Positions 1 through 34,571 are shown, counted from the first letter of the stretch. The stretch: 64,000 bases of DNA from Nitrospirota bacterium (GCA_963699545.1 CAVOUE010000006.1:256001-320000), one strand, 5' to 3'. Program-made: numbers and translations. Notes: generated from the sequence alone by a model not told the origin.

Positions 1-1
1 T

Positions 2-121
2 CTTAACTGGCCCCTCCTGGAAATCTTCCACACCTCCGTCGCAGCCTATCTCTTCGTCATCTGGATTCTTTTTATCATTCTGATCGCCGTCGGCGCGCGC
101 AAGGAAAAGACCGATAGATGA
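2..121 (+). CDS. 3' end of small membrane protein upstream of the SSF-histidine kinase (CbrX-like position), partial
   Basis: Open frame LNWPLLEIFHTSVAAYLFVIWILFIILIAVGARKEKTDR* read by eye; hydrophobic; ends 21 nt before the kinase ATG. Confidence 0.6.
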   Translation, partial: LNWPLLEIFHTSVAAYLFVIWILFIILIAVGARKEKTDR

Positions 122-142
122 GCCTCACGAAGAACTATAGGG

Positions 143-3101
143 ATGTTTGCACCATATAATCTTTTTGTCATTGTTTTAGGGTATCTCTTTCTCCTTTTTG
201 CCGTTGCGTACTATGCGGAGAAAAAGGAAAAAAGAGGCAAGAGCATTGTCAACAACCCGTACATCTACTCTCTCTCCATGGCTGTGTATTGCACTTCATG
301 GACCTTTTACGGGAGCGTGGGGAAGGCGGCGACATCAGGGTTATCCTTCCTCCCCATATACCTTGGGCCGACCCTCATGGCGGCCCTGTGGCTGGTCGTG
401 CTCAGAAAGGTTGTGAGACTGGCAAAGGCCAACAGGATCACTTCATTATCCGACTTCATCGGCTCACGGTACGGCAAATCCCTCTCCCTCTCTTCCCTTG
501 TCACTATTATCGCGGTCATCGGCATCACGCCCTACATCGGACTGCAGATCAAGGCGATCATCACCACGTTCACCATCATATCGGGTGAGACTACGGGGAG
601 CGCGGCCGCCGGCCTCTTTATCACCTTTATCCTCGGCATCTTCGCCATCATCTTCGGCGCCAGGAGCCTCGACGCGTCCGAGCGCCACGGAGGGCTCGTC
701 TTTGCCATCGCCTTCGAGTCCATTGTGAAGCTCGTGGCCTTCACTTTTGTGGGGATCTTTGTAACGTACAACCTTTTCAACGGCTTCGGTGACATCCTTG
801 ACAGGATCAAGGATTCTGAACACTCTGTCCTGCTCTTCCTCGGGACAGGGACTGGAACGGAGTACCCGGAATGGATATCCCTCCTCTTCCTTTCCATGAT
901 GGCCATAATGTTCCTGCCGAGGCAGTTTCAGATGGCGGTGGTCGAAAACTATGATGAACGCCACATCACCAAGGCGGCCTGGCTCTTTCCCCTCTATCTC
1001 TTCCTCATAAATATCTTTGTGCTCCCCATAGCCTTCGGCGGCCTCCTCCTGGGAGGCACCGCCAAGATGGCGGACTACTTTGTCCTCACCATGCCCCTGA
1101 ACCACGGGAACCGATACCTTTCTCTTTTCGCGTTTATCGGCGGTTTTTCCGCTGCGACGGGAATGGTCATTGTGGAGACGCTGGCGCTGGGCACCATGGT
1201 CATGAACAGCATCATCATGCCCGCTCTCATCAATTTCCATGACGCGCCCAGGTTCCCCGCAGTTGTTCTGAACATCAAGAGGCTTGTCATCCTCGGCATC
1301 GTTTACCTCGGGTACCTTTTCGCCATGTCTATCGCCGAGTTTTACAGCCTTGTGGATATCGGCCTGAAATCCTTCGAGGCGGTGAGCATCTTTGCCCCTG
1401 CCTTCTTCCTCGGCCTGTACTGGAAGAGAGGAACAAAGGCAGGGGCAGCAGCAGGGCTCCTCGCGGGGTTCATCGTCTGGTTCTATACCCTCATCGTCCC
1501 GGCGCTGATCAGGGCGGGCATCGTAAAAGAGATAGGATTTGTAGGGGCCCTGATGAATTCGGAGATACTGAACCCCAACAACCTCTTCGGGATCAAGGCC
1601 CTCGGCAAGTGGGGGAATTCCCTTTTCTGGGGCATGCTCTTTAATCTCGTCGCCTATGTGGGGGTCTCGGTATTCACACGACAGTCAAAGGAGGAAGAGA
1701 TCCAGTCCCTCATCTTCGTGGAGTCTTACGAGAGGGTCAAGGAACTTGCCCACGGGAGTTCTTACACGGTGAGGGACATCGAAGATATTCTCGCCCAGTA
1801 TATAGGCCGGGCAGAGGCGAAGGACATCATCCAGAGCTACCTTTCGAGAAAGAACAAGAGGGGGGACGAACTCACCTCACAGGAACTCTTTGAACTCCGT
1901 GATGAGGCGGAGAAAAACCTTTCCGGCGCTATCGGCTCCTCCATGGCCGCCATCATCTTTGAAGACAAACTCGTGCTGACAGAGAAAGAAAGAGGTGAAC
2001 TTTCCGAATCCATACGGAATATTACAGAGAGCCTGAGGTTCTCCCGCCAGGAACTTGCAGAGGCGAACAGAAATCTGGCGTATCTGAAAGAGTTCAGTGA
2101 AAACATCATAGAGAGCGCTCCTGCAGGTATTGTGACCATTGATGCTTCCCTTCTGGTGAAGTACTGGAACGGGGAAATGGAAACAGTGACAGGGATAAAA
2201 AAATCCGAGGCATCCAACAGGCCCATCGTCCGTCTGCTCCCTTGGATAACAAGGGAAACCCTCATGCAAAGCGAGCAAAGAGAGATGACGGTCCAGACCC
2301 CCTCCCTTCAGTCGTTCAAGATCAACATCAGTCCCTTCAAAGATCCTTCAGGCGGTTACGTGGTCATTTTGGAGGATATCACTGAGAAAAAGAAGATGGA
2401 GGAAAAACTCCTTCAGACCTCAAAACTTGCAAGTATCGGGAAGCTCACCGCAGGCATCTCCCATGAAATCGGCAATCCTCTTGCCTCCATATCCTCCCTC
2501 GTCCAGGAGATGAGATCCCTGGAACTGATGTCCGGGAATAATGTGGAGTTCACAATGGATGCCCTGAAGACAATCAACAGCCATCTTGAGAGGATCGCCA
2601 AGATCGTGAGAAGCCTCGGCGATTTTGCGCGGATATCATCCGCGGAGAAGACCGTTTCGAATATCTCGGACATCCTGGACCGCACCATCAACCTGGTGAA
2701 ATACGACAAGAGGTTCAAGCATATCAGGCTCGAAACGGATATTGGAGATATCCCGCCACTGAAGGTCAACCCCGACAAGATGCAGCAGGTCTTCCTTAAT
2801 CTCATTCTCAATGCCCTGGATGCGATGCCCGACGGGGGAAGTTCTCCATATCTCTATGGAACGGAGAGATTCCACGGTGGAGGTGGCCTTCAGCGATTCA
2901 GGCGCCGGCATTGATGAATCGGTGCAGGACAGGGTATTCGATCCGTTCTTTACCACCAAAACCCCGGGCAAGGGCACGGGATTAGGCCTCAGTATCTGTT
3001 ATGGTATAATCAGGGAACACAACGGGATCATTACCGTTAGAAGCAGAAAAGGAGAGGGGACAACATTTCTGATAAAACTCCCTGTAGAAAATAATGAATG
3101 A
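143..3101 (+). CDS. Sodium:solute symporter-PAS-histidine kinase fusion (CbrA/CrbS-like), frameshift near 2838
   Basis: N-terminal SSF (YCTSWTFYGSVG, ~13 TM), PAS region, HisKA H-box (SHEIGNPL), N-box (QQVFLNLILNA); G-boxes (DSGAGI, FFTTK..GKGTGLGL) continue in ORF 2811..3101. Confidence 0.9.
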
Positions 3102-4269
3102 ACGGCTGCTCATAGTGGAGGATGAGGAGACCCTGTGCGAGTCCCTGAAAAGGGTTCTCGTGCGGGAGGGTTACGTAGTGGATACCTTTAACAGCGCGGA
3201 GGCCGCCCTGGACATCTTCGAAGAGAGCTTCTACGACATCATCATCACCGACATCATCCTCCCGGGGATTACCGGAATAGAACTCCTGAAGAGGATAAAA
3301 GAACGCCTCCCCGAACAGATCGTGATCATCATGACAGCCTATGCCTCCCTTGAAACCGCAGTGGAGGCCCTCAGGACGGGCGCCTATGACTATGTGGTAA
3401 AGCCTGTAATGCACGAAGAAATAAAACAGATCGTCAAGAACGCCCTGAAGCAGGGCGCCCTCCAGGAGGAAAATGTCCTCCTGAGAGGCCAGATAGAGCG
3501 GGACTATGATTTCACACGGGTAATCGGAGAGAGTCCCGCAATGCAGAAGATCATGAGCGAGGTGAAAAGGGCTGCAGATGCGCGGGATAATGTTTTGCTT
3601 CTCGGGGAGTTAGGCACGGGGAAAGAACTCATCGCAAGGGCGATCCATTTTGGCGGTAACAGGGCCGGCAGTCCGTTCATCCCGGTAAACCTCAGCGCTA
3701 TTCCCGAAGACCTGCTGGAATCGAGGCTCTTCGGACACGTGAAGGGTGTTCTCCCCGATGCAGCAACTTCAAAAAAAGGACTATTTGAGGAGGCGAACGG
3801 GGGCACTATATTCCTTCGGGAAGTTGGGGTGCTGAGCCCTGCGCTACAGGCAAGGCTTGCCGAAGTTCTTGCGGAGCAGCACATACGGCCCGTGGGCGGG
3901 ACACAGGGGATGAAGGTCGATATCAGGTTCATTTCCGCAACGAACAGGGACATCGCCGGGGCGGTGAGGAGCGGCAGCTTCAGGGAGGATCTCTTTGCGA
4001 GAATAAACGGCACTTCCATACCCCTCCCTCCTCTCAGGGACCGGAGGGAAGATATAGAATCGCTTGCAGGGCATTTCATCAAGAAATACTCCGTAGCGTT
4101 CTGCAAGCCCGTGAAGGGCCTGGACAACGAAGCCTTGGCGCTCCTCCGCGGCTATCACTGGCCAGGGAACGTGAAGGAACTCCGGAACATTATTGAGCGG
4201 GCGGTTCTCGTAACGGACGATGGTGTCGTCAGAAGGAAACATCTGCCTGATCTCTCCCCTTCCCGGTAA
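3094..4269 (+). CDS. Degenerate sigma-54-type response regulator (REC + AAA+, no HTH)
   Basis: REC domain; Walker A GELGTGKE; GAFTGA replaced by GVLPDA; Walker B FLDEI replaced by FLREV; ends after AAA+ domain. Confidence 0.85.
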   Translation: MNERLLIVEDEETLCESLKRVLVREGYVVDTFNSAEAALDIFEESFYDIIITDIILPGITGIELLKRIKERLPEQIVIIMTAYASLETAVEALRTGAYDYVVKPVMHEEIKQIVKNALKQGALQEENVLLRGQIERDYDFTRVIGESPAMQKIMSEVKRAADARDNVLLLGELGTGKELIARAIHFGGNRAGSPFIPVNLSAIPEDLLESRLFGHVKGVLPDAATSKKGLFEEANGGTIFLREVGVLSPALQARLAEVLAEQHIRPVGGTQGMKVDIRFISATNRDIAGAVRSGSFREDLFARINGTSIPLPPLRDRREDIESLAGHFIKKYSVAFCKPVKGLDNEALALLRGYHWPGNVKELRNIIERAVLVTDDGVVRRKHLPDLSPSR

Positions 4270-4283
4270 ACAAAGCAAGAGAT

Positions 4284-6179
4284 ATGATTCTTGAAGATGT
4301 AATAAGTTTCCTGAAGAAAGAGCCTCCTTTCCAGTTTCTCGACGATGCCACACTGAAGTCTGTCGCAAAAAGCCTGTCCATGGAGTTCTATCCAAAAGGC
4401 ACGGTTATCCTGAAACAGGATGGTCCTCCAAGCGATTCCCTGAGAATTATCAAGAAGGGGGCGGTAAAGCTTCTCATGAGGTCAGAAGATGGAGACGATG
4501 TGCCCCTCGATTACCGGGGTGAAGGGGATTACTTCGGTTTCCTGTCCATGATCGGCGAGAGCCGGCAGAAGACGACCGCCCTTGCGGTGGATGACACCAT
4601 CTGTTACATTCTCAAAAAAGAGCGGGTCCTGAAGCTCATCGAGGCGAACCCTTCATTTTCAGAGTATTTTATGTCCTACCTTTCTCGGTTTATGGACAAG
4701 ACGTACGATGAGATGCACAGCAAGAGCCTCTTCTTCGCAGGCAGCGACCGGTACTTGTTCACCGCCAAGGCGGGCGATGTGGCCACAGAGGCTCACACAG
4801 TGGGAGAGGATGCGACGATACAGGAGGCAGCACAGCTGATGGCAAAGGATAAGATCAGCTCTTTAATAGTGCTCGATAAAAGGAACCTCCCTGCCGGCAT
4901 TGTGACGGACAAAGACCTGAGGGAGAAGGTGGTGGCAAAGGGGCGCAGCGTATCCGAGCCGGTAAAGAATATCATGACCATTTCCCTCATAAGGGTTGAT
5001 GCAGGGGACTCCTGCTTTGAAGCGGTGATGAAGATGATAAAGTACAACATCCACCATATGCTCGTCATAGAGGACGGCACCATGAAGGGAATGATGACCA
5101 ATCACGACCTGATGCTCCTCCAGGGCACGTCTCCTCTGTCCTTTGCTCATGACATAGAGAACCAGCAGACTATGGAGGGGCTTGTTCCCGTGTCAAAGAA
5201 AATAAATAATATCATCGGATTACTTCTCAGGGAGGGTGCAAGGGCGAGTAATATCACCAAGGCCATTACCGAGATCAACGACAGACTCATGAAAAAGATT
5301 CTTGAAATCGGGGAAAGGGTATGCGGACATCCGCCTGTTCCCTATTGCTGGATTGTGTTTGGAAGCGAAGGCAGGAAGGAACAGACCTTCAAGACTGACC
5401 AGGATAATGCAATCATTTATGCGGACCCGTCAACACCCGAAGAGGAAGAGGAGATCAGGAGGTACTTTTCGGCCTTCACCTCTTTTGTAAAGGACGGCCT
5501 CGCCGAGATCGGGTTCCCGCCCTGTCCTGCAGGATATATGGCGAGTAATCCACTGTGGTGCCAGCCTCTCAGGACGTGGAAAAGATATTTCTCCAACTGG
5601 ATCAATGAACCGATCCCGGATGCGGTGCTGAAGGCATTGATATTTTTTGACTTTAGACCTATCCATGGCAAATTCAGTCTCGCGGATGCATTGAAGGACT
5701 CCTTTTTATCGGGATTGCCAAACCAGGGAATCTTCCTCGGCCATATGGCGAACATCATCATAAAGAATACCCCGCCCATCGGGTTTCTCAAGTCATTTGT
5801 GGTGGAAAAAAGCGGTGAACATAAGGACGAACTTAACCTGAAAATAAAGGGGATCGCCCCGCTGGTGGACGTGGTGAGATTCTTTGCACTTGAAAGGGGA
5901 GTAAAGGAGACCTCCACCCTTGGAAGGATCCATGCATTGAAAGAGAGACATGCCATAGTGAAAGAGTACGCTGATGATATCGGGCATGCCCTTGAGTTCA
6001 TCATGCTCGTGAGGATTCAGCACCAGTATGAGCAGATAAAGGCAGGAAAGAAGCCTGATAATTTCATTAACCCTCATAATCTCAGCAACCTCGAAAAAAA
6101 GACAATACGGGAGGCCTTTCATCTCATCTCCAGGCTTCAGGGCATGATAGTGGAACGCTTTAAACCATTTATTAAGTAA
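4284..6179 (+). CDS. cNMP-binding/CBS-pair/DUF294 putative nucleotidyltransferase, copy 1
   Basis: cNMP domain (GEGDYFG), CBS pair (GIVTDKDLR), Pol-beta-like motif GSEGRKEQTFKTDQDNAII, DUF294_C-like C-terminus. Confidence 0.9.
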   Translation: MILEDVISFLKKEPPFQFLDDATLKSVAKSLSMEFYPKGTVILKQDGPPSDSLRIIKKGAVKLLMRSEDGDDVPLDYRGEGDYFGFLSMIGESRQKTTALAVDDTICYILKKERVLKLIEANPSFSEYFMSYLSRFMDKTYDEMHSKSLFFAGSDRYLFTAKAGDVATEAHTVGEDATIQEAAQLMAKDKISSLIVLDKRNLPAGIVTDKDLREKVVAKGRSVSEPVKNIMTISLIRVDAGDSCFEAVMKMIKYNIHHMLVIEDGTMKGMMTNHDLMLLQGTSPLSFAHDIENQQTMEGLVPVSKKINNIIGLLLREGARASNITKAITEINDRLMKKILEIGERVCGHPPVPYCWIVFGSEGRKEQTFKTDQDNAIIYADPSTPEEEEEIRRYFSAFTSFVKDGLAEIGFPPCPAGYMASNPLWCQPLRTWKRYFSNWINEPIPDAVLKALIFFDFRPIHGKFSLADALKDSFLSGLPNQGIFLGHMANIIIKNTPPIGFLKSFVVEKSGEHKDELNLKIKGIAPLVDVVRFFALERGVKETSTLGRIHALKERHAIVKEYADDIGHALEFIMLVRIQHQYEQIKAGKKPDNFINPHNLSNLEKKTIREAFHLISRLQGMIVERFKPFIK

Positions 6180-7526
6180 ATGAACGAACGACTTCTCATA
6201 GTGGAAGACGAAGAGACCTTGTGCGAATCCCTGAAAAGGGTGCTCGCAAGGGAAGGATATGAGGTGGATGCGGTCAAGAACGCAGAGGATGCGCTCGGCA
6301 GGACGGAGGAGGTAGTATACGACCTCATCATCACCGACATCCTTCTTCCGGGAATCGACGGCATCGAACTGCTCAGGAGGATACGGGTCAAAGCACCCGA
6401 CCAGATCGTGATCATCGTCACTGCGTACGCATCCATAGAAACCGCGGTGGGGGCCCTCAGGGCGGGCGCTTATGACTACGTAATAAAACCGATCATCCAT
6501 GAGGAAATAAGGCGCATCGTGAAAAATGCCCTGAGGGAAAGGTCTCTCGTGGCCGAAAACGTCATCCTCAGGAAACAGATAGAGGAGAAGTATGATTTTG
6601 AGAAGATGGTGGGTGAAAGCAAAGAGATCACCTCCCTGATCAGCGAAGTGAAAAAGATCGCAAATTCCAGGAGCAACGTCCTCCTCCTGGGAGAGACCGG
6701 CACGGGCAAAGAGCTGGTTGCAAGGGCTGTCCACTACAACAGCGCGCGGCTCGACAAACCCTTTGTTCCCATCAACTGCAGCGCGATCCCAGAAAACCTC
6801 CTTGAATCCGAGCTCTTCGGGTATGTGAAGGGCGCCTTTACCGGTGCCGCAGGCTCCAAGAGAGGGCTTTTTGAGGAGGCTAACGGCGGTACCGTTTTCC
6901 TTGACGAGATAGGAGAACTGAGCCAGCAACTCCAGGCAAAACTGCTCAGGGTGATCGATGACCACGAGGTGAGGCCTCTGGGCGGCGTCCAGTCCAGGAC
7001 CGTTGATGTAAGGTTCATTGCTGCGACGAATAGGGATATCGTAAAGGCGGTACAGGAAGGGATCTTCAGGGAGGACCTCTATTACAGGATAAATGTGGTG
7101 ACCATAACATTGCCTCCCCTGAGGGATCGGAAGGAGGATATACCCATCCTCGCAAGACATTTCCTGAAAAAATACTCCCAGGAGATAGGGAAGCCGGTCC
7201 AGTTCATTGACGACGCGGCGCTAAGACTTCTGATGAATTACAGTTGGCCGGGGAATGTGCGGGAACTGCACAATATTATCGAAAGAGCGGTGCTCATAAC
7301 CGACGGCAATACCGTCTTCCCCGAGCACCTGCCCGAGATGCTGAAGATCACCAACTCCTTCCTCTCAGAGGCGTTTAACAACATCCTCTCCATAGAAAAT
7401 TACACAAAGGAGTTTATCCTGAGGTACCAGTCCAGTTATCCCGAGCAGAAACTTGCGGACATGCTGGGGATCACAAGGAAATCCTTGTGGGAAAAAAGGA
7501 AAAGATGGCAAATTTCAAAGAAATAA
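6180..7526 (+). CDS. Sigma-54-dependent response regulator (NtrC/AtoC family)
   Basis: REC; GETGTGKE; GAFTGA; FLDEIGE; WPGNVREL; C-terminal HTH (LADMLGITRKSLWEK). Confidence 0.93.
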   Translation: MNERLLIVEDEETLCESLKRVLAREGYEVDAVKNAEDALGRTEEVVYDLIITDILLPGIDGIELLRRIRVKAPDQIVIIVTAYASIETAVGALRAGAYDYVIKPIIHEEIRRIVKNALRERSLVAENVILRKQIEEKYDFEKMVGESKEITSLISEVKKIANSRSNVLLLGETGTGKELVARAVHYNSARLDKPFVPINCSAIPENLLESELFGYVKGAFTGAAGSKRGLFEEANGGTVFLDEIGELSQQLQAKLLRVIDDHEVRPLGGVQSRTVDVRFIAATNRDIVKAVQEGIFREDLYYRINVVTITLPPLRDRKEDIPILARHFLKKYSQEIGKPVQFIDDAALRLLMNYSWPGNVRELHNIIERAVLITDGNTVFPEHLPEMLKITNSFLSEAFNNILSIENYTKEFILRYQSSYPEQKLADMLGITRKSLWEKRKRWQISKK

Positions 7527-7562
7527 ATGACCGTTACTTATATTCCCGTTTAGATCACTTAT

Positions 7563-7579
7563 TGTTACTATTGGTGACA
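7563..7579 (+). promoter_or_regulatory. Candidate enhancer (UAS) palindrome TGTTAC-N5-GTGACA; related half-sites at ~7533 and ~7630
   Basis: Near-perfect inverted repeat ~180 bp upstream of a sigma-54 promoter; GTTAC recurs three times in this AT-rich intergenic region. Confidence 0.5.
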
Positions 7580-7753
7580 TACATTAACTTAAAGAAAAAT
7601 ATGCACCTTTTCCATACCAGAAAAACTAATGTTACTTTTTGTGTCGTTAGTTTTCTTGCCCTAAAACTAAGGCTTCAGGCAAGCCTCCACAGGGATCCTC
7701 CTAAACCGTTTATTTTCATGATGTTCACCGGAAAGACAATATTGAAGGAATAA

Positions 7754-7769
7754 AGGCACATTCCTTGCA
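7754..7769 (+). promoter_or_regulatory. Sigma-54 (-24/-12) promoter
   Basis: AGGCACATTCCTTGCA matches TGGCAC-N5-TTGC with exact GG-N10-GC spacing, ~43 nt before ATG 7812. Confidence 0.8.
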
Positions 7770-7811
7770 ATGTACCCTGCCGTAACCTATGGCAAAAAGT
7801 CAATAGAACAT

Positions 7812-9746
7812 ATGGTAACAAAAGAGAAAAATAGCGCAAAGCGCACGAATGTTCAGGATGTCATCGGGTTCCTGAGGGGTGTTTCGCCCTTTCAGGACCT
7901 TGATGAGCCCACCTTGAGAGAACTTGCAGAGGGTGTCTCGATGGAATTCTATCCAAAAGGCTCAACCATTCTCCAGCAGGAAGGCCCCGCCAGCGAGTAC
8001 CTACGGATCGTCAAAAAGGGCTCTGTGAGGGTCTTCATGAAGTCCGGCAAGGACGATGAGCTGGCCATCGATACCAGGGGAGAGGGAGAGAGTTTCGGAT
8101 TCATTTCCCTGGTGAGCGGGGACAAGTCGAGGGCCAATGTAGTGGCCGTGGAGGATACCACCTGTTACCTCATCGGAAAAGTGGCCGTTGTAAAGCTGCT
8201 TGAGACATACCCTGCCTTTGCGGAATACTTCCTCGTATCCTACCTCAATAAGTATATCGACAGGACATATAAGGAAATGCACAAGAGAAGCCTGCTTTAC
8301 GGCGGAGGGGACAGGCTCCTCTTCACCACACCCGTGGGCGACCTCATCACGAAAGAGGTGATCACCGCGTCCCAGGACACGTCCATAAGAGATTCGGCAG
8401 AGATGATGTCTCAGAACGGGATAAGCTCGCTGGTGATCCTGGATGCCGATGGAATACCCGCAGGCGTCGTCACCGACAGGGACCTCAGAGACAAGGTGGT
8501 GTCCAAGGCAAGGAGTGTGCAGGATCCCGTAAAGGACATCATGAGCATCTCCCTCGTAAAGACGGATGCAAAGGATTACTGCTTCGAGGCCATCCTTAAC
8601 ATGATCCGCTACAATATCCACCACCTCCTCGTGATCGACAACGGAAAACTGAAGGGCGTGATCACCAACCATGACCTGATGATGCTCCAGGGCACGTCTC
8701 CCATCTCCATAGCAAGGGAGATAGAGAACCAGCAGTCCATAGAAGGCCTCGTGCCCGCATCGAAGAAGATCAATAAAGTCGTGGAACTGCTCATAAAAGA
8801 AGGGGCAAAGGCGAGCAACATCACGAGGATCATCACCGAGATCAATGACCGCCTCCTCCGGAAGATACTGGAGATCACCGAAAAGAAGCTCGGACGGCCT
8901 CCGCTGAAGTACTGCTGGATCGTGTTTGGGAGCGAGGGGAGAAAGGAACAGACCTTCAGGACCGACCAGGATAACGCCATCATATATGAGGATCCGCGAA
9001 CCCCTGCAAAGGGAGAGGAGGCAAAGACCTACTTTTCGGCATTCACTCTGCTGGTCAGGGATAGCTTGCTGAGATGCGGCTTCCCCCCCTGCCCTGCTGA
9101 TTACATGGCGAGCAACCCAAGGTGGTGCCAGCCCCTTCAGGTGTGGAAAAAATATTTCGCGGGATGGATCAACGAACCGACATCCGACGCAGTTCTGAAG
9201 TCCTTGATATTCTTCGATTTCAGGCCTATCCATGGGGAGATCGGCCTTGCGGAAGGACTGAGGGACTCTCTCACCTCCATGCTGGAGGGACAGATGCTGT
9301 TCCTCGGCTACATGGCAAATACCATCATCAATAACATGCCTCCCCTCAGCTTTTTTAAATCGTTCGTCGTCGAAAAAGGCGGCGAACACAAGGACGAATT
9401 CGACCTTAAGGTCAAGGGTATCGCCCCCCTGGTTGACGCGGTGCGGCTGTTTGCCCTGGAAAGAGGCGTACGGGAGACCTCAACCCTCGAAAGGATTACC
9501 GCACTGAGAGAGAGACACACCATCGTAAAGGAGTATGCGGATGAACTGGAGCATGCCTTTGAGTTCATCATGCTTCTCCGGATCCACCACCAGATCGAGC
9601 AGATAGAAGCGGGAAAGAAGCCTGACAACTTCATAAACCCGAACAAACTCAGCAACCTCGAAAAGAGAATGATAAAAGAAGAGTTCCATCTCATATCGAG
9701 GATGCAGGGGCTTATTATTGAACGTTATAAACCCATGATATGGTGA
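7812..9746 (+). CDS. cNMP-binding/CBS-pair/DUF294 putative nucleotidyltransferase, copy 2
   Basis: Paralog of 4284..6179; GSEGRKEQTFRTDQDNAII; start placed at ATG 7812 downstream of the sigma-54 promoter. Confidence 0.9.
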   Translation: MVTKEKNSAKRTNVQDVIGFLRGVSPFQDLDEPTLRELAEGVSMEFYPKGSTILQQEGPASEYLRIVKKGSVRVFMKSGKDDELAIDTRGEGESFGFISLVSGDKSRANVVAVEDTTCYLIGKVAVVKLLETYPAFAEYFLVSYLNKYIDRTYKEMHKRSLLYGGGDRLLFTTPVGDLITKEVITASQDTSIRDSAEMMSQNGISSLVILDADGIPAGVVTDRDLRDKVVSKARSVQDPVKDIMSISLVKTDAKDYCFEAILNMIRYNIHHLLVIDNGKLKGVITNHDLMMLQGTSPISIAREIENQQSIEGLVPASKKINKVVELLIKEGAKASNITRIITEINDRLLRKILEITEKKLGRPPLKYCWIVFGSEGRKEQTFRTDQDNAIIYEDPRTPAKGEEAKTYFSAFTLLVRDSLLRCGFPPCPADYMASNPRWCQPLQVWKKYFAGWINEPTSDAVLKSLIFFDFRPIHGEIGLAEGLRDSLTSMLEGQMLFLGYMANTIINNMPPLSFFKSFVVEKGGEHKDEFDLKVKGIAPLVDAVRLFALERGVRETSTLERITALRERHTIVKEYADELEHAFEFIMLLRIHHQIEQIEAGKKPDNFINPNKLSNLEKRMIKEEFHLISRMQGLIIERYKPMIW

Positions 9747-10456
9747 GGTGCGACCTGGGATTTCTGAACTTCAGGAGGGCAAAACGCGTGGAAATGGATG
9801 AGACCCTTTCCATCAGGGAGACGAGATACGTGGTCATCGACACGGAACTCACCGGCCTTGATGAGAGAAAGGACTCCATCGTTTCCATTGCTGCCATAAG
9901 AATGGTTGGGGGCAGAATAGATCTCGAAGATACCTTTTACCGGCTGGTAAATCCTGAGACCGAGCTGACAGCAGAGAGCGTGATCATCCACGGGATCACC
10001 CCTTCCGAGGTGGTAACAAAACCCGGGATCGAAAAAGCGCTTTCGGAGTTTCTCCAGTTCTGCAGAAAAGACGTTGTGGTCGGCCACTGCGTATCCATTG
10101 ACCTGAGTTTCATCAACAGGGAGATGAAGAGGATGCTCGGATATACAATGAAGAACCATGCCATTGATACCTCTGCCATATACGAATGGATACAAAAGAA
10201 GTTTTCATCCCGGAGAGCCTTTCCTCACTCATTTACTGATTCGGGGCTCTATGACATCGCGCAATTCTTTGGAATCCCTGTAAACGGAGCACACAACGCG
10301 GTAATGGACGCCTTTATTACTGCACAGGTCTTTCAACGGTTCATCCCTATGCTCATTGACGGGGGGATCAAAAACATAGGGGATTTGTTGAGTGTCGGCA
10401 ACCCATCAAAAGGAGGTGATAGGTCCGGAGCTACACGGGAGATGTACGGTCTTTAA
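9740..10456 (+). CDS. DEDDh 3'-5' exonuclease (DnaQ/epsilon-like)
   Basis: ExoI VIDTELTG, ExoII GH..SID, ExoIII HNAVMDA. Confidence 0.88.
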   Translation: MVRCDLGFLNFRRAKRVEMDETLSIRETRYVVIDTELTGLDERKDSIVSIAAIRMVGGRIDLEDTFYRLVNPETELTAESVIIHGITPSEVVTKPGIEKALSEFLQFCRKDVVVGHCVSIDLSFINREMKRMLGYTMKNHAIDTSAIYEWIQKKFSSRRAFPHSFTDSGLYDIAQFFGIPVNGAHNAVMDAFITAQVFQRFIPMLIDGGIKNIGDLLSVGNPSKGGDRSGATREMYGL

Positions 10457-10509
10457 CGCATTACAGCCCGTTTTACCGGGCTGAAACCCTAATAGTAGGA
10501 GGTAAGAGA

Positions 10510-10836
10510 ATGAGCAGTGCAAGCATCAAGAAAAGTGCAGTTGAAATCCTTGAAGATGAGGATTTCAAATCGTTGCACAGTCAGAAGAATACCATCTCGG
10601 TTATTCTGACGATCCTGGAGCTGGTTCTCTATTTCGGGTTCATCGCCCTCATCGCCTTTAACAAGCCCTTCCTGGCCCAGAAACTGAACCCCGATGGCGC
10701 CACGACAATAGGCATACCGATAGCGGTGGGCACCATTCTCCTTTCATGGGTATTCACCGCTATCTACATCTTCTGGGCGAATACCAAGTATGACGTGCTG
10801 GTCAAAAAAGTCAAAGACAAACTAATAGGAGGTTAA
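10510..10836 (+). CDS. DUF485 (YjcH-like) small membrane protein
   Basis: Two TM helices, [10 protein letters not shown] motif, directly upstream of actP; RBS AGGAGG. Confidence 0.85.
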
Positions 10837-10838
10837 CG

Positions 10839-12595
10839 ATGCCACAGGCAGCTCAGCAAGCAGCACAGACACGATAGGAACGGCTAACCCGACGGCGATC
10901 ATGTTTTTTGTCGCCTTTGTTATCAGCACCCTTGGGATAACATACTGGGCAGCCAAAAGGACAAGGACTACCAAGGACTTCTACGCCGCAGGCAGGAACA
11001 TCACCGGATTCCAGAACGGTCTTGCACTCGCCGGTGACTATATGAGCGCGGCATCCTTCCTGGGTATTGCCGGAATCGTTTCAACAAAAGGGTATGATGG
11101 TCTCATCTACTCGGTGGGATGGCTCGTGGGATGGCCCATCATCATGTTCCTTATCTCGGAACCCCTCAGGAACCTCGGGAAATATACCTTTGCAGACGTT
11201 GTCTCGTACCGTTTGAACGCGCGACCGATAAGGGCGGCGGCGGCGGCGGGCTCCCTCGCTGTTGTTATCACGTATCTTATTGCCCAGATGGTGGGCGCGG
11301 GAACCCTCATTAAGCTCATGTTCGGTCTGCCCTTTGAGGTTGCCATTGTCATCACAGGCTCCCTCATGATCTCATACGTTCTCTTCGGCGGGATGATCGC
11401 CACCACATGGGTCCAGATCATCAAGGCGTGCTTGCTCCTTGGCGGTGCGACCCTTCTCGTGATCCTGACCCTTTCGCAGTTCGGTTTCAGTTACGCCGAG
11501 CTCTTCAAACAGGCATCCACCGCGACCCCGGTCGGACAAAAGTTCCTTGAGCCGGGAATACTTGTGACCAACCCCGTGGATGCATTCTCCCTGGGTCTCG
11601 CCCTCATGTTCGGCACCGCGGGACTGCCCCACATCCTGATGAGGTTCTTCACTGTTCCCGATGCAAAGGCGGCAAGAAAATCCGTCTTCTATGCAACGGC
11701 CTTCATCGGCTACTTCTACATCCTCACCGTTACCATCGGTTTTGGCGCAGCAGTGCTCGTTGGCCAGAAGGTCATCATGGGTATTGACAAAGGCGGTAAC
11801 ATGGCAGGACCACTCCTGGCAGAGGCCCTCGGAGGAAATCTTTTCCTCGGCTTCCTGTCGGCAGTCGCCTTTGCGACGATCCTTGCCGTTGTTTCCGGAC
11901 TGACCCTCGCGGGAGCGTCTGCTTTTTCGCATGACCTTTTTGTGGGTGTCGTCAGGCGTGGCCAGGCATCGGAGAAGGACGAAGTCAAGGTCGCAAAGAT
12001 CGCTACCGTAGGTCTTGGTGCAACGGCCATACTCCTTGGAGTTCTCTTTAAGGGGCAGAACGTCGCCTTTCTCGTCGGTCTTACCTTTGCCATCGCGGCC
12101 AGCGCTAATTTCCCTGCGCTTATCATGTCGATCCTGTGGAGGAAATTTACCACGGCCGGTGCAGTATCAAGTATTTACGCCGGCCTCGTCGTTTCGGTTC
12201 TGCTCCTGATCCTCGGTCCCACGATCTGGGTCGACATCATCCACAAGAGTGAAGTGGATGCGGTCGCAAAACAGGTGAAGAGCATTGAAGACCCTTTAAA
12301 AGCCAAGGTGACTGACCTCGAAAAACTGAAAGTTCCCGGCCTTGATGCAGCAAAAATGGCAGAGATCGATGCGTCGATAGCTGCAGAAAAGAAAGCTGCT
12401 GAGCCTCAGATCAAGGAGGCAAAAGGCAAAATGCCGCAGCCCATATTCCCGCTTAGGAATCCCGGCATATACTCAATGGCTGCAGCGTTCCTTATGGGTA
12501 TCCTCGTGTCCCTGCTGGCGCCGGACAAGCAAGCAGAGGCAAAGTTTAACGGGGAAAAGGTCAGAGAGTACATAGGCGTAGGAGCGGAAGACTAG
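10839..12595 (+). CDS. actP: Cation/acetate symporter (probable frameshift near 10870)
   Basis: [18 protein letters not shown] and [15 protein letters not shown] motifs; RBS AGGAGG precedes ATG 10839, which is out of frame with ORF 10901..12595. Confidence 0.9.
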
Positions 12596-12624
12596 AAAAC
12601 GCTTATGGGATAGAAAGAGCAGCA

Positions 12625-12670
12625 TGCGGGAGTCAGGATGGGGTTTCCCCGCTTCTGACTCCCGCACTTT
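12625..12670 (+). terminator. Long stem-loop between actP and acs
   Basis: TGCGGGAGTCAG...CTGACTCCCGCA inverted repeat followed by CTTT. Confidence 0.55.
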
Positions 12671-12767
12671 CAGTACGTGATACCAAGCGTCTCACACAGA
12701 GCAAGGACACGAGTGTCACATAGCAGGCGGGACGCAGCTATAAGCAAAAAGAAAAGGAGGAGAGCCT

Positions 12768-14843
12768 GTGAGCAAAAAAGAAAAAGAAGAGAAAGGCATT
12801 GAAACATCAGAGGCCGAAATAGCGGTCCATTGGGGGGAAGAGCAATATTTCTATCCCTCTACGAAGTTTATCGCTCAGGCAAACATGACCGACGAAACGA
12901 TCTATGATCGCTTTTCACTCGAGAATTTTCCGAACTGTTTCAAGGAGTATGCAGACCTTTTGACCTGGTACAAGTATTGGGACGAAACCCTCGATACCAG
13001 TGATGCCCCTTGCTTCAGGTGGTTCAAGGGCGGCCTTATCAATGCGAGCTATAACTGCGTTGACCGGCACTTGAAGGAATACAAAAATAAGACCGCCATC
13101 CATTTTGTTCCGGAACTCGAGAATGAAAAGGTCGAGCATGTGACCTATCAGGAACTCTATGTGAGGGTGAACGAGTTTGCGGCTGTCCTCAAAGATTTCT
13201 GCGGTTTGAAGGCGGGAGACAGGGTAACGCTGCATATGCCGATGGTGGCAGAGCTTCCGATCACTATGCTCGCCTGCGCACGCCTTGGAATCATTCACTC
13301 CCAGGTCTTCGGCGGTTTCAGTGGAAAGGCCTGCGCCGACAGAATAGTTGACTCCAAGAGCCACGTCCTGATAACGATCGATGCGTATTACAGGGGCGGA
13401 CAGCTTATTGATCACAAGGAAAAGGCCGATATTGCTCTTGAGGAAGCGTCCAAAGAGGGGCAGGAGGTTGATAAAGTCCTTGTATGGCAGCGCTATCCCG
13501 GCAAATATTCCGCAAAGACCCCGATGAAGGAGGGTCGCGATTTCTTTGTCAATGACCTCCTGAAAAAATATTATGGAGTGAGGATCGATCCGGTCCCGAT
13601 GCTTTCGGAGGCGCCGCTGTTCCTCATGTACACCAGCGGCACTACCGGAAAGCCAAAAGGCTGTCAGCACAACACCGGCGGTTACCTTGCCTATGTGGCC
13701 GGCACATCCAAGTATGTTCAGGACATCCATCCCACAGATGTTTATTGGTGTATGGCTGACATCGGATGGATCACCGGTCATTCATACATCGTTTACGGAC
13801 CTCTTGCGCTTGCCGCTTCTACGGTAATTTACGAGGGCATTCCGACATATCCTGATGCCGGCAGATGCTGGAGGATTGCACAGGATCTGGATGTGAACAT
13901 CTTCCACACTGCGCCGACCGCCATCCGCGCACTCAGAAAAGTCGGTCCTGATGAGCCTGCAAAATACCATTACCACTTCAAGCACATGACCACGGTGGGG
14001 GAGCCTATCGAGCCGGAAGTCTGGAAGTGGTATTATCACGAAGTCGGCAAGAATGAAGCGGCCATTGTTGACACATGGTGGCAGACGGAGAACGGCGGCT
14101 TCCTCTGCAGCACCCTGCCGGCTATAAAACCGATGAAGCCCGGCAGCGCTGGTCCTGGTGTGCCGGGTATCCATCCGATCGTGTATGACAATGACGGAAA
14201 TGTTGTTCCGACAGGATCAGGTAAGGCGGGAAATATCTGTATACAGAACCCGTGGCCAGGCATGTTCCACACCATCTGGGGAGACCGCGAACGTTTTGTC
14301 AAGCAGTATTTCGAACGGTACTGCAAAGACCCGAAGAGCAAGAGATGGCAGGATTGGCCCTATCTTACGGGTGATGCTGCGGTCGTGGCATCTGACGGCT
14401 ATGTCCGTATCCTCGGCCGGATCGACGATGTTATCAATGTTTCAGGTCACAGACTGGGAACCAAGGAGATTGAATCCGCCGCGCTTACCCACCCTGATGT
14501 CGCGGAAGCGGCCGTTGTACCGGTTAAACATGAGGTCAAGGGAAAGGAGCCTGATCTGTACGTTGCCTTGAAGCCCGGTAAAACGGGAGGAGACGATCTC
14601 GCAAAAGCGATATCAGCGTGCGTCGTCAAGGAGATCGGGGCGATAGCGAGGCCGAGGAAGGTCTGGATCGTGCCTGATATGCCCAAGACCCGCTCGGGAA
14701 AGATCATGCGCAGGGTGCTCGGCGCCATTTCCAACGGCACCGATGTGGGTGATGTTATGACATTGGCAAACCCTGATATTGTCGAGGCTATCACGAAGAT
14801 GGTGCAGGGGAACGAAAAAGAGAAGCTCAAGGATCAGTTCTAG
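12768..14843 (+). CDS. acs: Acetyl-CoA synthetase
   Basis: YTSGTTGKPKG, DTWWQTE, PKTRSGKIMRR motifs; RBS AGGAGG. Confidence 0.96.
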   Translation: MSKKEKEEKGIETSEAEIAVHWGEEQYFYPSTKFIAQANMTDETIYDRFSLENFPNCFKEYADLLTWYKYWDETLDTSDAPCFRWFKGGLINASYNCVDRHLKEYKNKTAIHFVPELENEKVEHVTYQELYVRVNEFAAVLKDFCGLKAGDRVTLHMPMVAELPITMLACARLGIIHSQVFGGFSGKACADRIVDSKSHVLITIDAYYRGGQLIDHKEKADIALEEASKEGQEVDKVLVWQRYPGKYSAKTPMKEGRDFFVNDLLKKYYGVRIDPVPMLSEAPLFLMYTSGTTGKPKGCQHNTGGYLAYVAGTSKYVQDIHPTDVYWCMADIGWITGHSYIVYGPLALAASTVIYEGIPTYPDAGRCWRIAQDLDVNIFHTAPTAIRALRKVGPDEPAKYHYHFKHMTTVGEPIEPEVWKWYYHEVGKNEAAIVDTWWQTENGGFLCSTLPAIKPMKPGSAGPGVPGIHPIVYDNDGNVVPTGSGKAGNICIQNPWPGMFHTIWGDRERFVKQYFERYCKDPKSKRWQDWPYLTGDAAVVASDGYVRILGRIDDVINVSGHRLGTKEIESAALTHPDVAEAAVVPVKHEVKGKEPDLYVALKPGKTGGDDLAKAISACVVKEIGAIARPRKVWIVPDMPKTRSGKIMRRVLGAISNGTDVGDVMTLANPDIVEAITKMVQGNEKEKLKDQF

Positions 14844-14895
14844 ATCAGGAAGCAAAGAACCCCTTGAAGTCAAAGCAAGGGGGTCGTAGCCGGGC

Positions 14896-14934
14896 CGGAG
14901 CAACCTCAAAGCATGGGGTTGCTCCGCATTTTTG
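14896..14934 (+). terminator. Probable intrinsic terminator after acs
   Basis: CGGAGCAACC...GGTTGCTCCG stem followed by CATTTTT. Confidence 0.6.
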
Positions 14935-15025
14935 CTTGAACGGTGTAAGATAAGGGAAGCTTCGGGCAGTTTTGCGACCTGCAGAGGGTCTTCTGAAGAA
15001 AGGACCTGCCCGTTAAGAGATTGCC

Positions 15026-15577
15026 ATGGACAAATTTCTTATACGTAAAGACGATTCTGCCCTTGTGATAGTCGATATACAGGAGCGGCTTGCTGTTGTG
15101 ATGAGCGAGAGAGAGAAGGTCGTCAGGAATACCCTCCATCTCATAGAAGTTGCACAACTTCTCCGTCTTCCCATTCTTGTTACCGAGCAGTATCCAAAGG
15201 GACTCGGTCCCACAGTGCAGGAGATACGAGGAGCCCTTCCCTCCTATGAACCCATAGAGAAACTCACCTTCAGCTGCTGCGGAGAGCCTGTTTTTCTGAA
15301 GACCCTTGCCTCGACGGGAAAGAAAAAGATCATCCTCTGCGGCATGGAAACTCATGTCTGCGTCCTGCAGACCTGCATTGGTTCTTTAAAGGAAGGATAC
15401 ACCGTTCATGTGGTCAGCGACGCCATCTGCTCGCGTTCAAAGGAGAACTTCGAGACAGGAATCGAATTCATGAGGGACGCCGGCGCGGTAATAACGGGCG
15501 CAGAAACCGTCTTGTTCCAGTTACTTGAGAGGGCAGGTACGGAAGAGTTCAAGATCATCTCCAGGAGGATAAGATAG
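15026..15577 (+). CDS. Isochorismatase-family cysteine hydrolase
   Basis: VIVDIQERL, TEQYPKGLGPT, GMETHVCV motifs. Confidence 0.9.
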   Translation: MDKFLIRKDDSALVIVDIQERLAVVMSEREKVVRNTLHLIEVAQLLRLPILVTEQYPKGLGPTVQEIRGALPSYEPIEKLTFSCCGEPVFLKTLASTGKKKIILCGMETHVCVLQTCIGSLKEGYTVHVVSDAICSRSKENFETGIEFMRDAGAVITGAETVLFQLLERAGTEEFKIISRRIR

Positions 15578-15666
15578 ATGGGGAGATTCACCGTGACTTT
15601 TTCCTGCACGGTGAGACTTGCCGGGCTTAAGATGCGGGATGATGCACCAAAAAAGGGGAAGGCATT

Positions 15667-16272
15667 ATGATCACTACTCTTTTGGATGGCAATAAGAAGT
15701 TTGTATCAGAGCAGTTCGAGAAGGAGAAGGAATTTTACGATGCATTATTAAAGGATCAAAAGCCTACGGTGCTTTGGATAGGGTGCTCCGATTCCAGGGT
15801 TGCTGTCAACACTATTACCCATACGAAGCCGGGGGAAGTCTTTGTCCATCGTAATGTAGCCAACATTGTAGCGGCGAATGACTGGAACTTGAGCGCTGTT
15901 CTGGAGTTTTCGATCAACCATCTGAAAATCCCGGATGTGGTTATCTGCGGTCATTATGGGTGCGGCGGAATTCAAGCCCTCGATGAAGAGGACATAGAAG
16001 ACAAGTATATCCCCATCTGGCTCATTAACGCGTTCAAGGCCAAGGAACGGGTGGATGAGAAGTTGAAGGCCTTGCATATCGAAATTCTGCAGGAACAGCG
16101 GATGAAACTCATTGTGGAGGAGAATGTGCGGCTACAGCTTGAGCACCTGCAGGAATACCCTTTTGTCCGCAGGGCGATGAATGAAAAGAAACTGAACCTT
16201 CACGGCTGGGTATATGATATGGCAACCGGAGAGATACGGATTGTGAGGACAGAGCGTCCGCTCAAGGTCTGA
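15667..16272 (+). CDS. can: Beta-class carbonic anhydrase
   Basis: CSDSRV, HRNVAN, CGHYGCGG zinc-ligand motifs. Confidence 0.93.
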   Translation: MITTLLDGNKKFVSEQFEKEKEFYDALLKDQKPTVLWIGCSDSRVAVNTITHTKPGEVFVHRNVANIVAANDWNLSAVLEFSINHLKIPDVVICGHYGCGGIQALDEEDIEDKYIPIWLINAFKAKERVDEKLKALHIEILQEQRMKLIVEENVRLQLEHLQEYPFVRRAMNEKKLNLHGWVYDMATGEIRIVRTERPLKV

Positions 16273-29109: not shown

Positions 29110-29226
29110 TCCGGGACATCACACGAGAAGGCCGGAGTTACATGGGAAATAGTCCTTGCAACAGCTATTAGACAGCACATGTTTCTGTGATAGAATGTGA
29201 ATATGTAGCAGGAGGGAGGAGTTTTA

Positions 29227-30626: not shown

Positions 30627-30630
30627 TAAA

Positions 30631-31518: not shown

Positions 31519-31535
31519 CAGGAAAGGAGGTATCC

Positions 31536-32012: not shown

Positions 32013-32037
32013 GGGACCATGTTTTTTTTAAAGGAGA

Positions 32038-32071
32038 GCAAAAGGGAGCGGCACCTTCGCTCCCTTTTGCT
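32038..32071 (+). terminator. Stem-loop between ccoP and ccoG
   Basis: GCAAAAGGGAGCG-loop-CGCTCCCTTTTGC perfect stem. Confidence 0.6.
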
Positions 32072-33237: not shown

Positions 33238-33249
33238 AGGAGGTGGGCA

Positions 33250-33390
33250 TTGAGCGGATGGGTTTATTTCGGTTTCACCGTAGCTCTTTTTGCGGTGCTC
33301 GTCGGGATCATCATCCATTACTACAACCCGAAAGAGAAAGAAAAGGTCGAAAAGCCGAAGTACAGGATATTTGACGAGGATGACAGATGA
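33250..33390 (+). CDS. ccoQ: cbb3 oxidase subunit IV-like small membrane protein (not in ORF track)
   Basis: RBS AAGGAGG + TTG; MSGWVYFGFTVALFAVLVGIIIHYYNPKEKEKVEKPKYRIFDEDDR*. Confidence 0.75.
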   Translation: MSGWVYFGFTVALFAVLVGIIIHYYNPKEKEKVEKPKYRIFDEDDR

Positions 33391-34523: not shown

Positions 34524-34571
34524 GTGATCGGGTCATTCGCTCATGATGTGCAGGAAATGTGGTGTGATGCG

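Follow-up and report, generated by a model that had tools for sequence, protein, structure and literature searches.

The window analysed here, a 64,000-nucleotide (nt) stretch of DNA from a Nitrospirota bacterium (GCA_963699545.1 CAVOUE010000006.1:256001-320000), carries two paralogous DUF294 nucleotidyltransferases, the second of which overlaps the gene for a stand-alone DEDDh 3'-5' exonuclease and is followed by genes for an acetate symporter and an acetyl-CoA synthetase (Acs). The locus is a phylogenetically distant example of a known, unsolved module; its features are beyond chance, and its sigma-54 wiring and extra paralogue are local variations. Drawing on structural models and on analogy with described systems, we propose, as a reading that is possible rather than probable, that DUF294 writes an inhibitory nucleotide mark on proteins of monocarboxylate uptake or activation and that the exonuclease erases it. 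An earlier note on this DNA, made before any database search, had likewise read the pair as a candidate writer/eraser switch wired to the acetate transporter. The closest proteins, at up to 83% identity, are from metagenome bins of Thermodesulfovibrionales/Nitrospirota. The genes and elements of the locus, with lengths in amino acids (aa) where given, are as follows.

143-3101, plus strand: predicted sensor kinase, SSF(SLC5)-PAS-HisKA-HATPase, in two frames, 143-2914 and 2811-3101 (SSF, PAS and HisKA by Pfam)
3094-4269, plus strand: response regulator 1, receiver + sigma-54 AAA+ + lid, 391 aa (Pfam); AtoC/NtrC-like over residues 3-386 only (NCBIfam)
4284-6179, plus strand: DUF294 copy 1, cNMP_binding-CBS-CBS-DUF294-DUF294_C, 631 aa (Pfam), within the kinase/regulator operon and with no exonuclease behind it
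6180-7526, plus strand: response regulator 2, receiver + sigma-54 AAA+ + HTH_8, 448 aa (Pfam HTH_8 E 8e-4); AtoC-like over residues 3-439
7564-7578, plus strand: upstream palindrome 1, GTTAC-N5-GTGAC, with aligned copies in relatives
7631-7645, plus strand: upstream palindrome 2, GTTAC-N5-GTGTC, with aligned copies in relatives
7754-7768, plus strand: sigma-54 -24/-12 element, AGGCAC-N5-TTGC, 1 mismatch, kept in Nitrospirota relatives
7770-9746, plus strand: DUF294 copy 2, architecture as copy 1, 658 aa from ATG 7770 (Pfam), motif intact
9740-10456, plus strand: stand-alone predicted DEDDh 3'-5' exonuclease, DnaQ/PolC type, 238 aa (Pfam RNase_T E 3e-32)
10510-10836, plus strand: DUF485 (YjcH-like) small membrane protein (Pfam 7e-26)
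10901-12595, plus strand: ActP-like cation/acetate (monocarboxylate) symporter (Pfam SSF 8e-109)
12625-12666, plus strand: 19-bp hairpin without a U tract in the actP-acs gap
12768-14843, plus strand: acetyl-CoA synthetase (AMP-forming), Acs (Pfam AMP-binding/ACAS_N; NCBIfam acetate-CoA ligase)
14896-14926, plus strand: intrinsic terminator with a 13-bp stem, 8 GC pairs and a T tract, the only strong terminator, after acs

By their Pfam matches, both nucleotidyltransferases belong to the DUF294 family (PF03445 + PF10335): copies 1 and 2 match DUF294 at E 3e-50 and 6e-51 (169.9 and 172.4 bits, cut-off 21) and DUF294_C at E 4e-44 and 1e-46 (150.5 and 158.5 bits, cut-off 22.5), together with a cNMP_binding domain (E 9e-16 and 5e-15) and two CBS domains (6e-19 and 9e-22) that lie above their own Pfam cut-offs in both copies. 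The copies are 63% identical and share FGSEGRKEQTF[KR]TDQDNAIIY, that is, G-S-x10-D-x-D, so that their initial description as sensor-bearing paralogues with an intact motif holds. The family is large, with 17831 matches at E <= 0.001 and 2243 at E <= 1e-30 among the 1.84 billion cluster representatives searched. In 43 sampled relatives G387 is invariant and D399 and D401 are each kept in 34, and D483, also invariant in relatives, is presumably the third catalytic carboxylate. All 58 exonuclease-coupled copies counted have the motif intact, although their loci were retrieved by these same motifs. About a dozen of 150 listed representatives are clearly non-acidic at the catalytic Asp positions, and catalytically degenerate DUF294 paralogues therefore exist. 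Relatives that lack one or both Asp yet keep G387, R391 and D483 (L046 7820-9739, L059 8015-9940, P0128, P0130, P0131, P0143 and others) are possible pseudoenzyme partners.

Searched by sequence against the PDB, the catalytic half gave 0 matches at E <= 10. An AlphaFold2 (AF2) model of this half (copy 2, residues 310-658; predicted local distance difference test score, pLDDT, 97.4) gave four PDB matches at E <= 0.001 in Foldseek, all of them protein AMPylators: the N-terminal (deadenylylating) domain of GlnE (1v4a), DrrA with Rab8a (6yx5_B) and two chains of the C-terminal (adenylylating) domain of GlnE (3k7d). These four have E values of 3e-7 to 1e-6, probability 1.0 and template-modelling scores for the query (TMq) of 0.65-0.66. 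Weaker matches comprise aminoglycoside nucleotidyltransferases (TM about 0.3), the TUTase 3hj1 (E 0.25, TM 0.20) and the Hailong protein HalB (E 0.24, TM 0.21). The DUF294 catalytic half as modelled belongs to the GlnE/DrrA protein-AMPylator fold class, and the domains of GlnE and DrrA in the top four places agree with the likeness to GlnD/GlnE first suspected from the motif. Because this fold groups the transferase with enzymes that put AMP on protein tyrosines, we favour protein nucleotidylation as its chemistry. DUF294_C has been grouped with the C-terminal domains of GlnD and GlnE in the HEPN/KNTase_C clan (PMC3710099).

The CAP-type domain at the other end of these proteins was compared with the canonical phosphate-binding cassette, with its Glu and Arg positions. 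At the Glu position, Glu is never one of the five most frequent residues; at the Arg position, 13 of 60 sequences have Arg. Because these canonical contacts are not conserved, cyclic-nucleotide binding by the domain is doubtful, and the cyclic-nucleotide sensing that the earlier note had entertained becomes doubtful with it.

The partner is predicted, by sequence and by model, to be a DEDDh (DnaQ-like) 3'-5' exonuclease. Its DEDDh residues are D34/E36 (VIDTE), D121 and H185-x4-D190; in 57 exonuclease sequences D34, H185 and D190 are invariant and E36 and D121 are at least 90% conserved. The best PDB match by sequence is the PolC-type exonuclease domain of T. maritima (1e-22), and the AF2 model (pLDDT 90.6) retrieved PolC exonuclease domains, CRISPR-associated DnaQ, the DinG exonuclease and Pol III epsilon in Foldseek at E 1e-13 to 1e-11, and then RNase T. 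Copy 2 and the exonuclease gene overlap by 7 nt when read from ATG 9740, or by 4 nt (GTGA) from the in-frame GTG 9743, the stop codon of copy 2 occupying 9744-9746; an alternative exonuclease start, GTG 9788, lies 9 nt after AGGAGG. Because the junction in relatives usually measures -4 to +12 nt, we take the tight coupling to be real, as the overlap noticed at the outset had suggested, and predict that the exonuclease is translationally coupled to copy 2. Prediction of a complex between full-length copy 2 and the exonuclease from separate alignments scored 0.01 against a mark of 0.32, a result that speaks in neither direction on binding. A search of longer proteins for fusions containing the exonuclease returned 2 matches (a helicase fusion and a 504-aa protein with the exonuclease domain only) and no DUF294 fusion, a blank that is weak evidence. 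PADLOC gave generic domain matches only (a DEDDh model, PDC-S48 by way of the exonuclease domain and PycTIR by way of the cNMP domain, 6.5e-5) and no system-specific defence match.

Scanning genomes with an alignment of 14 sequences gave at least 603 matching stretches; 597 were confirmed, and the best 80 yielded the 77 loci analysed here. These come from Nitrospirota, Acidobacteriota, Desulfobacterota, Chloroflexota and a few others; they were found via the catalytic motifs and are biased to query-like sequences, and their neighbours were labelled with phmmer, using the window proteins as queries. The exonuclease is present in 61 of the 77 loci and stands directly downstream of 54 of the 84 assessable DUF294 open reading frames (ORFs), mostly with overlaps or gaps below 13 nt. 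An SSF transporter was found in 38 loci, Acs in 32 and either of them in 46, whereas DUF485 was found in 14 and two DUF294 copies in 13. SSF or Acs genes lie near 42 of the 61 exonuclease-bearing loci as against 4 of the 16 without exonuclease (Fisher p 0.003, relatedness uncorrected); among loci of at least 20 kb, 21 of 30 and 1 of 7 have such neighbours (p 0.011, relatedness uncorrected). This co-occurrence bears out the statement that the pair recurs beside actP-type transporters. In many relatives DUF4212 and a VC_2705-type SSF protein replace DUF485 and ActP (L001 12741-15028; L007, L009, L021, L022, L025 and L054 by score), and the DUF294-exonuclease pair is therefore common to two kinds of two-subunit symporter.

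Elsewhere the exonuclease is fused to sensors. PAS or HAMP-PAS proteins of 720-898 aa that end in an exonuclease domain (L028 7374-9587, minus strand; L068 4042-6735, plus strand; L073 7330-9489, plus strand) adjoin DUF294 and a stand-alone receiver gene, and in this setting the exonuclease acts like a signalling output domain. The sensor-fused exonuclease of L028 also adjoins a 905-aa histidine kinase that matches the SSF kinase of the window. A stand-alone receiver gene precedes DUF294 in L016, L017, L020, L028, L032 and L073, with no exonuclease match in L016, L017, L020 and L032; this arrangement suggests direct phosphorelay input.

Where two DUF294 copies stand in tandem, the exonuclease follows the downstream copy only. 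Copies placed between two regulators, as copy 1 is (here called 'a' copies), group in one clade of 7 (support 0.999) that lies inside the exonuclease-coupled copies of Nitrospirota, and Desulfomonilaceae underwent a separate duplication (support 1.0); there, the Asp residues are gone from two upstream copies (L046, L059). Sites discriminating the 'a' clade from 18 exonuclease-coupled Nitrospirota copies, sought as a hint of writer/eraser specialisation like that within GlnE, numbered 0. The short form of response regulator 1 also precedes an 'a' copy in L001, L014, L025 and L026. A substitute eraser was sought by Pfam among 102 neighbouring ORFs in 17 loci (14 with no exonuclease match and 3 with none stand-alone downstream), and no recurrent partner was found; three of these loci proved to have exonucleases fused to PAS domains.

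The gap before DUF294 copy 2 measures 243 nt. In the window alone the sigma-54 consensus occurs at chance level, with 49 matches at <=2 mismatches against 48.8 expected. However, 23 of the 85 DUF294 ORFs examined have a -24/-12 match of at least 8/10 bases at a distance of 50-115 nt before the conserved N-terminus; with few exceptions these ORFs are exonuclease-coupled Nitrospirota copies (L001-L014, L022, L023, L025, L054), and none of the matches stands before an 'a' copy. It is this conservation in relatives that makes the element credible despite its chance-level count. Because the -12 element stops 1 nt short of ATG 7770 and the alignment with homologues begins only at about residue 28 of copy 2, the true start of copy 2 is probably ATG 7812 and not ATG 7770. 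The claim that copy 2 heads a sigma-54 transcript thus stands as regards the element itself, on the strength of its relatives and not of the window alone, and is amended as regards the start codon.

Upstream of the promoter, the two palindromes align with similar pairs in L001, L022, L025, L054 and L014. They follow the pattern GTTAC-N5-GTRWC, are 67 nt apart and lie about 110-190 nt upstream of the -24/-12 element; matched against RTTACNNNNNGTRWC, they are the only occurrences in the 64 kb, with 0.27 expected for a pattern that was picked after viewing the alignment. They look like candidate enhancer sites for the regulator that bears a helix-turn-helix (HTH) domain. That regulator, response regulator 2, is likely the activator of the downstream sigma-54 promoter; in response regulator 1, Pfam detected no HTH.

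Farther downstream, the region 12596-12767, with the actP-acs hairpin, folds at -61 kcal/mol (z -4.7), and 0 of 200 shuffles were equally stable. The hairpin may act in processing or stabilising a 3' end, or work as a partial terminator and so uncouple acs from the genes of the transporter. DUF294 copy 2, the exonuclease, DUF485, ActP and Acs appear to form one sigma-54 transcription unit: the sole strong terminator comes after acs, the hairpin between lacks a U tract, and in 12 of the 24 cases where an SSF gene comes after the exonuclease, acs stands behind the transporter in the same orientation, which makes the earlier "probably acs" reasonable. Acs exceeds both NCBIfam cut-offs for acetate-CoA ligase (782 > 657; 765 > 725); the symporter, at 720 bits, falls slightly below the ActP subfamily cut-off of 750.

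In the sensor kinase, the SSF domain matches at E 8e-5 and 22.1 bits, slightly below the Pfam cut-off of 22.8; PAS and HisKA are also matched, HATPase_c appears in the shifted frame (E 3e-20, ORF 2811-3101), and there is a partial NCBIfam match to a VC_2705-type symporter. The gene contains a 1-nt frameshift at a G run near 2834. Because ftsH (AAA, lid and Peptidase_M41 pieces) is likewise spread across four frames (22093-23912) and a Pterin_bind (folP-like) gene across two (23993-24885), the assembly seems indel-prone and the frameshift is probably an artefact.

Counterparts of the pair have been met in Pseudomonas. In P. fluorescens SBW25, Pflu5625 (cAMP-binding/CBS/nucleotidyltransferase) is among four CrbS-dependent proteins, and its deletion had a negligible effect on growth on acetate; the same paper cites a 1999 prediction that it controls proteins by nucleotidylating them (PMC5715377). 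In P. putida KT2440, ErdR binds the operon of pp_0354/pp_0353, and neither deletion is reported to alter growth on 20 mM acetate; the deletion of pp_0353 (exonuclease) delayed growth on pyruvate, like that of actP-I, whereas that of pp_0354 (transferase) had no phenotype (PMC9927547). The authors, who note that the PAO1 pair adjoins actP/yjcH, guess at a role in mRNA degradation (PMC9927547). In a 2026 preprint the two genes are the targets that depend most strongly on MxtR/ErdR, and a role in protein modification is suggested (bioRxiv 10.64898/2026.09.07.749794); PA3232-PA3235 are up about 16-fold on propionate (PMC9765439). Random barcode transposon-site sequencing (RB-TnSeq) found DUF4212 symporter genes to be cofit with a nearby 'COG2905 (RNAse T domain protein)' gene in S. 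amazonensis and P. stutzeri, and its authors speculate that the COG2905 gene is needed for symporter expression (bioRxiv 10.1101/072470). It is ambiguous which member of the pair these cofit genes, Sama_1525 and Psest_0349, represent, as the text uses both 'COG2905' and 'RNAse T domain protein'. In another system, RNase Z is a deAMPylase for SelO substrates (PMC12663964).

Our literature search, conducted mostly at the level of listings, found no substrate assigned to DUF294, in keeping with the earlier note. The idea in that note is less new than it seemed: the pairing of the genes and its place in the regulon have been published, as has the guess of nucleotidylation (PMC5715377; bioRxiv 10.64898/2026.09.07.749794), and only the idea of the exonuclease as eraser was not found in our search.

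The mechanism that we tentatively favour would run as follows. The SSF kinase and the NtrC-type regulator or regulators would drive the sigma-54 promoter before DUF294 copy 2, the exonuclease, DUF485, ActP and probably Acs. DUF294, gated by its CBS pair, which probably senses adenine nucleotides, and by its CAP-type ligand domain, would place a nucleoside monophosphate (NMP) in phosphodiester linkage on a protein hydroxyl, and this mark would hold back monocarboxylate uptake or activation. Its likeliest target would be the ActP/small-subunit transporter, and after that Acs or the kinase and regulators. The exonuclease would hydrolyse the O-P bond and free 5'-NMP, by the same chemistry as in removing a 3'-terminal nucleotide, and so restore transport. 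Copy 1, in the kinase/regulator operon, may perform the same chemistry at the level of signalling or share the exonuclease. Acs is AMP-forming and drains ATP, and a CBS pair that reads adenylate status would be physiologically sensible beside it. That the mark or signal should be inhibitory and removed by the exonuclease is suggested by the P. putida genetics, because loss of the exonuclease mimics loss of the transporter and loss of the transferase shows nothing. The intact catalytic residues of both enzymes, the close coupling of their genes, the sensor-fused exonucleases, the association with SSF or Acs genes and the cofitness of one member of the pair with the neighbouring DUF4212/SSF symporter also count in favour of the mechanism. 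The most specific form of this mechanism, in which the exonuclease is a dedicated de-nucleotidylase of proteins, with no earlier example in its fold, and acts with an energy-sensing GlnE-like AMPylase/UMPylase as a reversible switch on a symporter (ActP/DUF485 or DUF4212 type) or Acs, we regard as unlikely.

Several observations count against a writer/eraser pair acting on the transporter. The exonuclease has an ordinary DnaQ/PolC/epsilon-type fold with no specialisation visible in its sequence or in Foldseek, and our search, again mostly of listings, found no DEDD exonuclease linked to the removal of protein-bound nucleotide. The published phenotypes are mild and fit three rival explanations equally, and only candidate proteins can be named as the target of the mark. 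In P. putida the pair is located away from actP (PMC9927547), and in the preprint both deletions were moderately defective on propionate and pyruvate, which blurs the writer/eraser asymmetry (bioRxiv 10.64898/2026.09.07.749794). Among our loci, 19 of the 61 with exonuclease have no SSF or Acs gene within the locus DNA examined, and 16 of the 77, as well as all 'a' paralogues, have no exonuclease alongside. The locus counts themselves, being from the best 80 of at least 597 stretches, describe Nitrospirota, Acidobacteriota, Desulfobacterota and a few Chloroflexota and not the whole family. Of the original proposal, the antagonistic logic fits the P. putida genetics and has a precedent in RNase Z, whereas the unremarkable exonuclease fold does not speak for the eraser.

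In the type VII toxin-antitoxin system MntA-HepT, an upstream nucleotidyltransferase modifies its downstream nuclease partner. By the same logic, the exonuclease may be the regulated effector and itself the target of the transferase: DUF294 would nucleotidylylate the nuclease off, and the active nuclease would act on RNA (or DNA) and be needed for expression of the transporter. This too strikes us as unlikely. Both enzymes would keep their known chemistry (a GlnE/DrrA-like modifier and a DnaQ-like nuclease), the exonuclease is the most constant neighbour (61 of 77 loci, compared with 46 of 77 for SSF/Acs), and the order from transferase to nuclease, with 4-nt overlaps, fits. The membership of DUF294_C in the HEPN/KNTase_C clan (PMC3710099), the guesses of both the fitness-study and the P. 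putida authors at a role in expression or mRNA, and the transporter-like phenotype of exonuclease loss (PMC9927547) point the same way. However, deletion of the transferase is reported as non-toxic and without phenotype, and the nuclease is therefore not a toxin; DUF294 copies without exonuclease would have no nearby target; and the model gives no account of how a 3'-5' exonuclease might increase expression. Rfam, run over positions 1-16000 at E <= 1, revealed no RNA feature beyond a single chance-level snoRNA match.

Sensor-gated synthases paired with sensor-gated hydrolases are familiar from GGDEF/EAL proteins, and Orn is a DEDDh enzyme that clears dinucleotides. The DUF294 product could accordingly be a nucleotide signal, a linear or cyclic oligonucleotide or another small molecule with an NMP adduct, acting as an inhibitor of the transporter, Acs or the two-component system, with the exonuclease as its phosphodiesterase. 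The pairing of domains resembles such systems, PAS/HAMP-exonuclease fusions exist, dinucleotide-clearing enzymes of this fold are known, the CBS and CAP-type domains could bind the product, and the published genetics fit equally. Nevertheless, the cGAS/DncV/OAS class is missing from the top Foldseek matches, its nearest approach being HalB at E 0.24, the exonuclease is closer to DnaQ/PolC than to dinucleotidases, and PADLOC returned only its generic domain matches; we hold a signal to be rather improbable.

A Pol-beta-fold transferase beside a 3'-5' exonuclease also recalls the classic tail/trim pairs, such as the CCA-adding enzyme with RNase T or GLD-2 with PARN. DUF294 would then add untemplated nucleotides to the 3' end of an RNA (the operon mRNA, a small RNA or a tRNA) and the exonuclease would trim them; there is a strong hairpin at the 3' end of actP, and the genetics fit if tails destabilise mRNA. 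Yet RNA nucleotidyltransferases are much poorer matches to the catalytic half than the protein AMPylators are (for the TUTase 3hj1, TM only 0.20), and Pfam found no RNA-binding domain in either protein; we give this explanation little credence. Finally, that a housekeeping nuclease merely shares an operon with DUF294 as an unrelated sensor, as its generic fold and the weak mutant phenotypes in the published accounts might be taken to mean, is very improbable, given the pairing across Nitrospirota, Acidobacteriota, Desulfobacterota and Chloroflexota (and, per the literature, Gammaproteobacteria), the common stop/start overlaps and the sensor-fused exonucleases in the same context.

The writer/eraser mechanism remains our preferred reading; it is plausible, unproven and partly original, and is better grounded now by the fold class, the genetics and the RNase Z precedent. 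DUF294 is a large family whose chemistry has only been guessed at since it was first classified and whose exonuclease partner has no assigned role. To this the window contributes a version from a distant phylum, in which the pair, the transporter and Acs are apparently on one sigma-54 transcript, an assignment by structural model of the catalytic half to the protein-AMPylator class, and the sensor-fused exonuclease variants found in its relatives. If the writer/eraser mechanism is true, it would add a new eraser fold for protein AMPylation and a new form of transporter control; and if the pair proves to be a de-nucleotidylase switch, a module with thousands of homologues would constitute a new bacterial post-translational control of carbon uptake.

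Some other genes of the window were noted as well. Past the acs terminator, and in the same orientation, come an isochorismatase-family gene and one for a beta-carbonic anhydrase (15026-16272). The window also has a cbb3-type oxidase cluster (COX1, FixO with cytochrome c, FixG-like, DsbD_2 and a copper-type P-ATPase) within 29187-36992 and 38034-38879; the nearest relatives of the genome are Thermodesulfovibrionales. An IS200-like transposase gene on the minus strand was noted with these regions.

Among known systems, GlnE and GlnD share with DUF294 a nucleotidyltransferase with a helical C-terminal fold, the spacing of what is called the G-x11-D-x-D motif, and attached sensor domains; moreover, the logic of GlnD-PII-NtrB/NtrC resembles the setting of DUF294 beside an NtrC-type sigma-54 system. 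They differ in that identity is only 9-14%, with no sequence-level PDB match. Nor is the context one of nitrogen regulation: the neighbours are acetate genes, and no glutamine synthetase or PII domain was found among the window ORFs scanned with Pfam. GlnD removes its modification with an HD domain. In GlnE, removal falls to a second transferase domain (PMC12663964), unlike the separate DEDDh enzyme here. DrrA/SidM and SidD of Legionella combine the transferase fold seen in DUF294 (6yx5_B; TMq 0.65 and TMt, for the target, 0.67) with a separate eraser protein; DrrA differs as a secreted effector that acts on a host GTPase, with a phosphatase-fold eraser (PMC12663964), and it has no sensor domains. 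The nearest precedent for the eraser idea is SelO with RNase Z, in which a nuclease fold serves as a protein deAMPylase (PMC12663964). There, however, a pseudokinase does the writing and an endonuclease of the metallo-beta-lactamase type the erasing, and the two are not an operon pair.

On the regulatory side, CbrA/CbrB, an SSF-domain kinase with an NtrC-type regulator, and other SLC5/STAC kinase systems resemble the window in joining an SSF-domain sensor kinase to an NtrC-type sigma-54 regulator, whereas the window has two response regulators, one of them without HTH, and its target operon is an acetate module. CrbS/R (MxtR/ErdR) of Pseudomonas is closer in its targets: its pair is likewise under the control of an SSF-domain sensor kinase and associated with actP/yjcH and acs. 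The CrbS/R target set (acs, actP/yjcH and the DUF294-exonuclease pair) is present by synteny in the window and its relatives, from which we infer CrbS/R-like regulation. The means differ, with NtrC-type sigma-54 activators and a -24/-12 promoter here and an ACTU inverted repeat with an RpoD promoter for CrbR/ErdR; both window regulators are receiver + sigma-54 AAA+ proteins and neither is of the CrbR type, the ACTU motif itself not having been searched for. Closest of all are PP_0354/PP_0353 of P. putida, Pflu5625, and PA3233/PA3232 of P. aeruginosa, which, like the window pair, unite cNMP, 2 CBS and nucleotidyltransferase domains with an RNase_T exonuclease downstream in one operon, and from which the window differs in having a second DUF294 paralogue between two regulators, in carrying the pair, DUF485-ActP and Acs apparently as one unit, and in belonging to the phylum Nitrospirota.

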